From the IMG/VR virus record IMGVR_UViG_2529292910_000009, positions 1-45,637 of that record: DNA of 45,637 nucleotides, one strand, 5' to 3'. Numbering within the stretch: the stretch's first letter is position 1; the number at the start of each line of letters is the position of its first letter. The position numbers were made by a program. Origin of the DNA: a virus (lineage: Duplodnaviria > Heunggongvirae > Uroviricota > Caudoviricetes). Positions 33,001 to 36,000 of this stretch are shown here, in pieces.

Positions 33001-36000
33001 CGCGCCTGATGATTCAGGCGGTTAATTTCCTCGCTGCGCTTACGGCCCTCAGCCAGTTGCCATTCCCGCCATTCGTCGGTCGTCCGGAACGGTGCTGCCA
33101 CGTGCGGTGGTGCCAGACGGCACACCCGTTCAAGAATCCCTCCAGTCGAAATGTTTTTCATGGCTGATTACCCCCTGAAACCCGGCGGAATTTCGGTGTC
33201 CGGTTCAGAAATGTGATTCACGCAACGCAGGCTGACTGCGCCAGCCTTCGGCAGCGACCACGGATTTTCGAAATTCCTGTTCGGGCCAAAAAACGTCGAT
33301 GCCTGCTGAACAAATTCAGTTCCCGCTTTCCCGGTAGCCTCCAGGTATCTTGCGTAACGCCTCACGCCATCCAGCACGACATCCGGTGACACCCCTTCGC
33401 GTAATCTGGCCCTCCAGGCATTGAACGCGGATTTCTTCGGGTTTGACCCTGCCCGATGCGGATATTCACGCCAGACCCGTTCGAACACGTCAGGATAATC
33501 AACTCGTCCCGCAGACGGTCCCGGCATCGCCCGGGTTAACCCAATCGGCTTCCCGCTCATCGCGGAATCGGCTTCAGGCTGCTGCGGTTGGCGTTGTTGC
33601 TCCGGTTCGACGATCAGCACCTGCTGCACACAACGCCCGGAATCTGCTTCCGGTGTCGTGCCAGCTGGTCCTGGAGGTTCAGTCAGAACAGGACAAAAAT
33701 CCCCCTGCGGGTCCGTGGCGATTTTTTCGCCATGGACCAGAAGGGTTTTATCCCTTTCCTGTTCTTGTTCCTGTTCCTGTTCTTGGCTTGAAAGGGGCTC
33801 TGAAGGGGCTTCAATTTTCCGACATGATTCACGTCTGACATCCAGGTGGAAATCATCCTTATATCTATCATAAAAGGATGATAAAAAAGGATTTTCCAGC
33901 AACGCGGAATATTCATTTCTTACCCCAGCACAACGGTTATCGCCAGGTTTCAGCGATTCACCAACCTGCCATGCTGCCATTTCATGCACCCATACAACCT
34001 CAGAATCATGGTCATAGCTGCAAAAACCAGCCTCGCAAGCCATTTGAAGCCCCTTAGAAGCCCCTTCAGGAGCAAGTCCGGTTTCGTGAGCAATGTACAA
34101 AACAGGCAGGTAATAAAGGCCCAGCATATTGGAATGAGGCGAGGTCATCATATACAACGCCACTACCATACATTCCGGACCAGACTTCCTTAGTTTTCGC
34201 CCTGTATCGCCTAACCAGAACTGAGGTGAAATTGTTGCGTAATTACGCATAGTCCCCTCGCATACAAGATTTACTCCATACCGCAGACGGTCCCGGTATC
34301 TCCCGGGTTAACCCAATCGGCTTCAGGCTGCTGCGGTTGGTGTGACTGCACATTGGTGTGACTGCACATCTTCACAGACGGTCCCGGTATCTCCGGGTTA
34401 ACCCAATCGGCTTCAGGCTGCTGCGGTTGGTGTTGTTGCTGGCGAAATTCTTCCAGATGTGGCAGAATTATTCCCGTGTATTGCTCCATGCCCTGCCTGA
34501 ATATCAGATATTCATCAGGATTTGCTCAGAACGTCCGGCCCCAACCGGACGTTTTTTATTTGCATGAACGTTAATGGCATGCTGGAAAGCCCGGCTGATC
34601 GGACTGATATCAGATGCCATCTGAAACGCGCATAAAATAGCCGCGATGTATCGCCAGTCGGTACGACTGACCTTCGATTCATGACAGCCAATCATCTTCG
34701 CCAGTCCCCTTTGCGTCAGAGCTGACAGGTTGATAAGTAAATCCGTTTCAGCGCGATCGATATCGCGCTGTGACAGTTTGCTGTAACTTGTTTGTTCCAT
34801 TTCTTAAGATTTCCAATAGTGAATAGCTAGTTGAAAGGTATGCGTGGAAACGCATATGGCCTTAGTTGGTCAGATATCTTGGGGCTCGCTTTGTCAGCGA
34901 CGTAGGACGAATGTCCATTGTGAAAATAGCGGTGTTACTTATGCAGCCAGAAGGTTCTTTTTGCTTATTTCAAGCATTTCGCTTGCTTGATATTTGCCAC
35001 CAGAAATCTCTTCGATTTTTGATGCGTATTTCGTTTTCCCAAAAAACTCAGTCTTAGGGAGGAAGCCGTTTTTGAGCCACTTATAGACAGCCCTTTCGCT
35101 AACTCCACAAGCCTTCGCAACTTCAGGGATGCCGACACCTTTAATCGGCTCATCAAGATTTTGCATAGGGATATCCTTTTTCGTACTTTCAGTACGCATT
35201 ATGATTGAACTGAAAGTTTTTGCAAGTGCTTTAGTATCGTACTCATGGTTCAGAATGAAAAAGTGCGCAAAGAATTCGCCCAGCGGCTAGCGCAAGCCTG
35301 TAAAGAAGCTGGTCTTGATGAACATGGTAGGGGAATGGCTATAGCCCGTGCCCTTTCTCTTTCGTCCAAAGGCGTTAGCAAATGGTTTAATGCTGAGTCT
35401 TTACCGCGTCAGGAAAAAATGAATGCGCTTGCGAAATTTCTAAACGTTGATGTTGTTTGGCTTCAGCACGGCACTTCGTTAAATGGAGCGAATGATGAAG
35501 ATACTCTTTCATTTGTTGGCAAATTAAAAAAAGGGTTAGTGCGCGTGGTTGGTGAGGCAATTCTTGGTGTTGATGGTGCCATCGAGATGACCGAAGAGCG
35601 CGATGGGTGGCTCAAAATTTATAGCGATGATCCAGATGCCTTTGGCCTTCGTGTGAAAGGAGACAGCATGTGGCCCAGAATAAAATCAGGAGAATATGTA
35701 CTCATTGAGCCTAACACCAAAGTATTCCCGGGTGATGAGGTGTTTGTCAGAACCGTTGAAGGACACAACATGATTAAGGTTCTTGGCTATGACAGAGATG
35801 GAGAATACCAATTTACAAGCATTAACCAGGATCACAGGCCTATAACGTTGCCTTATCATCAAGTAGCAAAGGTGGAGTATGTAGCTGGTATTCTGAAGCA
35901 ATCTCGCCATCTGGATGACATCGAGGCAAGGGAGTGGCTGAAAAGTTCGTGACTTCATCGTCACATAGCTGGTAACCAGTGGCCAGAAGAAACGTTTGGG

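Follow-up and report, generated by a model that had tools for sequence, protein, structure and literature searches.

The window analysed here, the whole 45,637-nucleotide stretch of the Caudoviricetes record IMGVR_UViG_2529292910_000009, holds a small array of direct repeats between the cII gene and the gene of an O-like replication initiator, and a further copy of the repeat unit lies inside the initiator gene itself. Around the array, gene calls give the early-right gene order of a lambdoid phage on the minus strand: a cro-like gene (34939-35199), cII (34504-34800; Pfam Phage_CII, E = 4e-26), a 72-aa open reading frame (ORF) that spans the array (34271-34489; phrog_2751, function not assigned), the initiator or replisome organiser, a 360-aa protein of the 'Eru4' type (33168-34250), a DnaC/IstB-like ATPase (32421-33161) and a DUF1627/YdaW-like protein (31625-32395). 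A cI-like repressor gene is on the plus strand (35245-35952). With the ATPase and the DUF1627/YdaW-like protein downstream, the replication genes have the ydaU-ydaV-ydaW arrangement of Rac, here subject to control by cI, cro and cII of the lambda type.

Three copies of the unit are present, all on the minus strand. Unit A (34281-34343) is the copy nearest the initiator gene and unit B (34375-34440) the copy nearest cII, and the two stand head to tail with a tandem doublet of the 16-mer TTGGTGTGACTGCACA (34337-34368) between them. The third copy, the putative source (33509-33605), covers codons ~215-247 of the initiator gene, in the linker ahead of the C-terminal domain. It is a long form of 97 nt, in which 23 extra nt (33553-33575) lie between two AATCGGCTTC direct repeats; units A and B are short forms from which this segment is absent. 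Repeat finding and a pattern search bore out the ~60-bp unit that the initial annotation had placed once inside O and twice between cII and O, the duplicated 16-mer was recovered by repeat finding and by Tandem Repeats Finder, and the 72-aa ORF is present on the minus strand where it had been called. The annotation had also ascribed the inverted repeat CCCGG-N6-CCGGG to every unit. This holds for the in-gene copy and unit A, whereas a 1-nt deletion leaves unit B with CCCGG-N5-CCGGG. Each unit carries a second short palindrome, GGGTTAACCC.

The repeat search gave 100% identity over 41 nt between 34303-34343 and 34393-34433, and 92% identity between 34281-34329 and 33509-33557. In the core alignment, units A and B agree at 63/68 positions, while the in-gene copy agrees with unit A at 63/69 aligned bases with a 23-nt gap and with unit B at 63/68 aligned bases with a 24-column gap. 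The window (45.6 kb) contains the 19-mer GGTTAACCCAATCGGCTTC exactly three times, once inside the O-like gene (33534) and twice in the cII-initiator interval (34306 and 34396); ~0.01 occurrences would be expected by chance, even with 3 mismatches permitted. The first 16-mer appears to prolong the homology of unit A to the linkers of other initiator genes (TTGGTGTGACTGC vs TTGGTGTGATTGC in locus L006).

A structured RNA or a hairpin was considered as an explanation and dropped, since folding of the array as RNA was not significant on either strand (z = -0.35 and -0.93) and no significant structure emerged from DNA folding of the single units (z from -2.0 to +0.7). By eye, with no formal scan, no consensus site for DnaA, CRP, LexA, CII or IHF was seen in the unit or the 16-mer.

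Source of the repeat unit and the module seam

The initiator consists of two separable halves that match PHROG replication families, an N-terminal one (residues ~1-190) and a C-terminal one (~207-360). No Pfam family was found for the protein: Pfam and NCBIfam gave only a weak DnaT match of the last ~24 aa, and a PDB sequence search returned the same DnaT-like tail only. The in-gene copy of the unit encodes the stretch ahead of the C-terminal domain, and this stretch is prone to indels and frameshifts. The linker of the window reads QQPEADSAMSGKPIGLTRAMPGPSAGRV and that of O157-type alleles QQPEADSAIQREADRVVPESTGQSVGRV, a frameshift that is compensated, and judging from the aligned alleles the linker evidently tolerates complete replacement of ~18 residues. 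The compensated frameshift can also be read in the alignment of the window with loci L048 and L006, as SGKPIGLTRAMPGPSAG against QREADRVVPESTGQSVG.

The unit DNA and its ~24-nt long/short dimorphism recur in the linkers of other initiator alleles, in the long form in L048 and in the short form in L006. The N-terminal domain of the L006 initiator is unrelated to that of the window, yet its linker conserves the unit DNA. The part of unit A that enters the 16-mer (GCAGTCACACCAAC) differs by one base from the linker allele of O157/L006 (GCAATCACACCAAC), and unit B resembles the window's own linker allele at this part. Because the same DNA is found in the linkers of L048 and L006, and because units A and B resemble different alleles, the units are best read as copies of linker-coding DNA, possibly stemming from more than one allele. 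The initiators of O157-type prophages, whose N-terminal domain is of the same type (74% nt identity), possess just the linker copy and no upstream copies; this comparison took in 481 genomes at 60-80% nt identity.

On the cII side of the array, the junction of the window was aligned with those of two lambda-type prophages (L051 and L052), in which a cII gene ~77% identical to that of the window is followed by a true lambda-type O gene. The segment 34441-34503 (minus strand) is homologous to their cII-O intergenic region and first lambda-type O codons. The start of O, ATTATGACAAAT in the lambda-type prophages, is vestigial in the window (ATTCTGCCACAT), and the lambda-type homology disappears at the edge of unit B. 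On the other side of the array, the module is Rac/YdaU-YdaV-YdaW-like, and relatives of this replication module reside in Rac/YdaS-YdaT-type prophages without cII. The array lies between segments of different ancestry, next to a vestige of the replaced gene, and it marks the seam at which a lambda-type cII-oop-O' junction was joined to a Rac/'Eru4'-type replication module. Identity to the 23CRST049 relative is 98.2% for the O-like gene, 94.6% for cII and 95.1% for the vestige.

The plus strand of the vestige holds a putative pO-like promoter, with a -10 element CAGAAT at 34463-34468, TG before it and a +1 near 34476; a sigma-70 promoter scan of 34150-34900 found no promoter, and its placement is thus by homology alone. 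The edge of unit B abuts the inferred -35 element. From the predicted start, an oop-like antisense RNA would span 34476-34561 (plus strand), with an intact intrinsic terminator (34528-34555) and a T-run behind it, and would overlap cII at its 3' end as well as the start codon of the 72-aa ORF. Rfam at E <= 1 over 33000-35300 gave nothing meaningful, and the only notable match was a weak AgvB-like one on the oop-like terminator (20.7 bits, below the gathering score of 56). AgvB is the anti-GcvB small RNA of enterohaemorrhagic Escherichia coli prophages.

Variation of the array among prophages

The segment 34230-34520 is 99-100% identical in the Shigella phages POCJ13 and 75/02 Stx and in the Escherichia phages phiSTEC1589-Stx1c and PhiR5_2, and it is also matched in 82/5426 complete E. 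coli genomes, O104:H4 outbreak strains among them. A scan of IMG/VR for GGTTAACCCAATCGGC found only this E. coli/Shigella prophage family and five unrelated chance matches (L015, L037, L044, L046 and L047). Fagerlund et al. 2022 (PMC8951638) take phage 75/02 as the type for the 'Eru4' replication region; repeats or iterons are mentioned neither in that paper nor in the earlier Eru paper.

Comparison with related cII-O junctions, which the initial annotation had proposed as a check, revealed that the array is polymorphic. Two short units, as in the window, are present at 28 other loci. One short unit is found at L003 and on four viral contigs, and three short units at L060, whose 102-aa ORF product can be read on 24 contigs. 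Long units, which differ from short ones by 23 nt, occur three in a row with a period of 113-114 at L005, as a single copy at L063, and together with a short unit at L062. Altered numbers of the 16-mer can be inferred from proteins P0002 and P0004. The array is thus present as 1, 2 or 3 units in prophages that are 95-100% identical across the region.

By position, unit A of the window corresponds to units U1 and U2 of L005 (67-68/69) and unit B to U3 (65/68). At one point, a GAT is common to the L005 in-gene copy and all three L005 upstream units, while all copies in the window have GAA. Because GAT and GAA are shared within each genome in this way, gene conversion (concerted evolution) between the in-gene and upstream copies is indicated. 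The divergence of the units between the window and L005 (~95% identity) is similar to that of the flanks (94.6% for cII and 95.1% for the vestige), with no special conservation. Indels in the units are frequent, and no array-free relative with the same initiator allele was found.

The repeats can also recombine across the gene. At L004 and in two sister isolates, the upstream unit is fused to the in-gene copy and the intervening ~770 bp is deleted, and the initiator of this type is annotated in RefSeq as a pseudogene missing its N-terminus. This deletion illustrates how prophage replication can be inactivated through these very repeats. The locus (L004 1160-1571) belongs to E. coli SW071611, which with its two sisters is a wastewater isolate; in these strains the N-terminal half of the initiator and the candidate origin described below have been lost by natural deletion.

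The 72-aa ORF changes with the array. Among the variants, its products are 42, 46, 51, 58, 62, 72, 76, 88 and 102 aa long. All nine share MEQYTGIILPHLEEFRQQQHQPQQPEAD or a near-identical start (~28 residues) and then continue in differing frames to three C-termini, so that neither frame nor length is conserved. The first 28 codons have 0 synonymous and 6 non-synonymous distinct substitutions, as against 22 and 15 in cII at the same loci; the numbers are small, and the ORF has none of the synonymous excess of a coding gene. PGAP annotates no coding sequence (CDS) at its position in L005, and its ATG is located in DNA that lies between genes in lambda-type phages. As read from the sequence, the unit is open in two of three frames. 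An open frame across the array is expected because the unit descends from coding DNA, and a variable 'hypothetical protein' would follow because an array of such descent happens to be open in two of three frames. The phrog_2751 family was built from these same phages. Pfam and NCBIfam gave no match for the ORF, a BLAST search of E. coli genomes with 34434-34530 turned up no further context for its 5' part, and no longer protein starting like it was found, so that the ORF could not be shown to be the stump of a larger gene. Together, these results suggest that the 72-aa ORF is probably not a constrained gene and likely incidental, as the initial annotation had supposed in calling it an artefact of the repeats, although it may be translated nonetheless.

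Nature of the array

The explanation that we favour, with moderate confidence, is that the array is a recombination scar at a module junction that turned into a variable-number tandem repeat (VNTR), which exchanges sequence with its source inside the gene and occasionally destroys that gene. A recombination scar had been among the options of the initial annotation, and it is this option that gains support from the vestigial cII-O junction and from the variation in copy number and unit length among near-identical prophages. The units would be non-essential duplicated fragments of flexible-linker DNA at the seam between cII-oop-O' and the 'Eru4' (Rac/YdaU-type) module, the latter comprising the O-like initiator, a DnaC-like loader and the DUF1627 protein. 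The first ectopic copy may have arisen by a tandem duplication that began upstream of the gene and extended as far as the linker, with a subsequent internal deletion, or by an illegitimate join during module replacement. Once present, it would have been tandemly duplicated along with a 16-mer. Unequal recombination or slippage would then add or remove units (giving 1-3) and 16-mers, units would pass from the long to the short form and back by slippage between the 10-bp repeats GAAGCCGATT, and the in-gene copy and the array would swap sequence by gene conversion. Recombination between an upstream unit and the in-gene copy would remove ~770 bp, and with it the N-terminal domain of the initiator and the probable origin core. 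The array would be transcribed as a spacer within the pR operon. The build of the repeats, their polymorphism, the product of the deletion, the homology at the junction and the lack of cII-like constraint on the ORF are observed directly; the sequence of steps behind the first copy and the absence of a function for the array are our inference.

Several points weigh against this reading. The array ends against the inferred -35 of pO and is the only spacer between cII and the ribosome-binding site (RBS) of the initiator, and its length may have a regulatory side-effect. At least one unit is present wherever this initiator allele occurs, and because the unit always accompanies the allele there is no natural array-free control; most of the array query is found in 78 complete genomes, and the N-terminal part of the gene, at >=95% identity, likewise in 78, an agreement of totals only, not matched genome by genome. 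The linker motif GAAGCCGATT agrees with a candidate iteron, GAAGCCCCTT, at 8/10 positions. In the literature searched, no binding, replication or expression experiment on the region was found.

Of the rival explanations, a regulatory spacer or upstream ORF survives best, though we consider it unlikely. Translation from the ATG at 34489 would bring ribosomes from cII to the initiator RBS, couple expression of the two genes and prevent polarity, and the length of the array would set the distance between pO/oop and the initiator. The position of the ORF is consistent with such a role: its ATG lies 14 nt past the cII stop, in most variants it ends 20 nt before the initiator ATG or overlaps this ATG as ATGCGTAA, and the oop-like RNA is antisense to its start. 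However, the ORF stops early in L005 and L062, leaving ~120-270 nt untranslated, and two of the three frames of the unit are open merely through coding descent. Furthermore, the Shine-Dalgarno match upstream of the ORF ATG, as read from the sequence, is weak, while the initiator has a strong RBS of its own, GAGGGGA.

Iterons were the first suggestion made for the units, which the initial annotation had called iteron-like. Lambda iterons are ~19-bp units, closely packed next to an AT-rich region, and their sequence co-varies with the N-terminal domain of O. Clustered units of ~17-22 bp are not what is seen here: the units are 60-90 bp of linker DNA, the upstream period is 90-114 bp, and the in-gene copy lies ~770 bp from the array. 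Nor do the units have an AT-rich neighbour, the array and its flanks having 47-58% GC and the in-gene copy lying in DNA of 62-67% GC. Instead of varying with the N-terminal domain, the unit stays with the linker and C-terminal module, L006 included, and O157-type alleles with the same N-terminal type manage without upstream copies.

A far better candidate for iterons was found inside the initiator gene. There, two copies of AAGGGGCTT with an 11-bp period form a first cluster (34048-34067, minus strand, codons 62-69), and two inverted copies with the same period form a second one (33791-33810, plus strand, codons 147-153). The second cluster adjoins 33850-33909, the only AT-rich stretch (32% GC), which lies between the clusters and has the lowest GC content of the whole gene. 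With a period of 11 bp, neighbouring copies are read in different frames. O157-type alleles have a second cluster of direct, not inverted, copies, and their gene is still open. AAGGGGCTT is found at the same gene offsets in N-terminal homologues 47-61% identical, from the four Betaproteobacterial genera Caldimonas, Candidatus Contendobacter, Sterolibacterium and Methyloversatilis, where it uses locally rare codons (CTT makes up 2/31 leucine codons in the Caldimonas gene and 2/26 in the Methyloversatilis gene). The AAGGGGCTT(C) arrangement was noted also in L048, L049, L053, L055, L056 and L057. A pattern scan of genome contigs was dominated by low-complexity QEQEQEQE, and 7 true loci were obtained. 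AAGGGGCTT follows the N-terminal domain out to the Betaproteobacteria, as would be expected of binding sites evolving with this domain, and the clusters are probably the real origin, as candidate iterons that lie within the coding sequence of the initiator. When the literature was searched by text for the 10-mer, all the papers listed were unrelated.

Directly after the second cluster, a (TTCCTG)n hexamer repeat (33756-33782) encodes QEQEQEQE, and its copy number differs among relatives. Because the number of hexamers varies, the spacing between in-gene and upstream units ranges over 766-790, mostly in steps of 6. The run 'SQEQEQEQ' is kept even in the Betaproteobacterial homologues.

One possible role of the units is that of auxiliary initiator sites: low-affinity iterons, handcuffing sites or incompatibility determinants that flank the origin core and tune its firing. 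The geometry would suit such a role, as the three direct copies bracket the probable origin core, with the array ~215 bp upstream of the first cluster and the in-gene copy ~190 bp beyond the second. The short palindromes of each unit, the resemblance of GAAGCCGATT to GAAGCCCCTT and the constant company of at least one unit with this initiator allele point in the same direction. However, the unit travels with the linker and C-terminal module, also in L006, where the N-terminal domain is unrelated and AAGGGGCTT is absent, and O157-type initiators of the same N-terminal type are without upstream copies. There is free variation in copy number, unit length and spacing, the DNA that flanks the units is not rich in AT, and no AAGGGGCTT-type motif is found in the array even with one mismatch permitted. 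GAAGCCGATT itself differs from GAAGCCCCTT in the G/C core and travels with the wrong domain. We therefore regard auxiliary sites as quite improbable; the units are most likely not extra origin binding sites, to judge from their sequence relationships.

A bolder version can be imagined, in which the upstream array and the in-gene copy are deliberate low-affinity initiator or handcuffing sites around the origin core, with GAAGCCGATT as a degenerate AAGGGGCTT/GAAGCCCCTT iteron. Copy number would then tune replication or the incompatibility of co-resident prophages, and recombination between the copies would be a one-way switch that turns replication off. We give this version even less credence than auxiliary sites in general.

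Least probable of all is a genuine small protein (phrog_2751) with 1-3 copies of a linker-like QPQQPEAD motif that might mimic the initiator linker: its CDS in phage and RefSeq records, its own PHROG family and its first ~28 nearly constant residues speak for it, but frame and length diverge past ~residue 28 (42-102 aa, three C-termini), PGAP calls no CDS in L005, the 6 distinct substitutions among its first 28 codons all change the amino acid, its start codon corresponds to a position between genes in lambda-type relatives, and no Pfam or NCBIfam family matches.

Relation to known systems and significance

The array is of a familiar kind, but no description of this cII-initiator array was found in the literature searched. 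Among its closest parallels are the remnants at lambdoid mosaic junctions described as 'traces of homologous recombination' (De Paepe et al. 2014, PMC3945230). Like these, the array stands where modules of different ancestry meet, is accompanied by vestigial gene fragments and is still an active recombination substrate. Unlike these, the remnant here would be a fragment of the linker of the incoming module itself, amplified to a variable tandem array that forms a direct repeat with the inside of the downstream gene.

Bacterial and phage VNTRs of the minisatellite-like type share with the array the head-to-tail units, here of ~90 or 113 bp period, the variable number among near-identical genomes and the slippage indels at short direct repeats. 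In the present case, however, the unit seems to stem from nearby coding sequence with which it still exchanges, and recombination inactivates a replication gene. The iterons of the lambda origin are likewise tied to a lambdoid initiator gene, with one copy of the present unit lying in the gene near the linker-coding region and with short inverted repeats in each unit. The differences are units of 60-90 bp, a distance of ~770 bp to the in-gene copy, no AT-rich neighbour, a variable number, and a unit that is common to an initiator with a different N-terminal domain. As regards oop RNA and pO of lambda, the stretch 34441-34561 beside the array is homologous to the oop/pO region and has retained the terminator hairpin. 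The pO of lambda is located inside the opening codons of a working O gene, whereas here these codons are vestigial and the array separates pO from the real initiator gene.

Stx1 phages of Shigella and E. coli carry the 'Eru4' module, as does a prophage of the O104:H4 outbreak lineage other than its Stx phage. The unstable spacer between cII and the initiator accounts for the many lengths of an annotated 'hypothetical protein', and the array could be a typing marker. If the array did bind the initiator, it would be part of an unusual origin flanked by auxiliary sites, which we judge unlikely on present evidence. Searches for the origin should shift from the units to the AAGGGGCTT clusters inside the gene, an arrangement that seems a more interesting lead than the array. 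The repeats themselves give these prophages a ready route to the loss of replication, through a ~770-bp deletion between the upstream unit and the in-gene copy.

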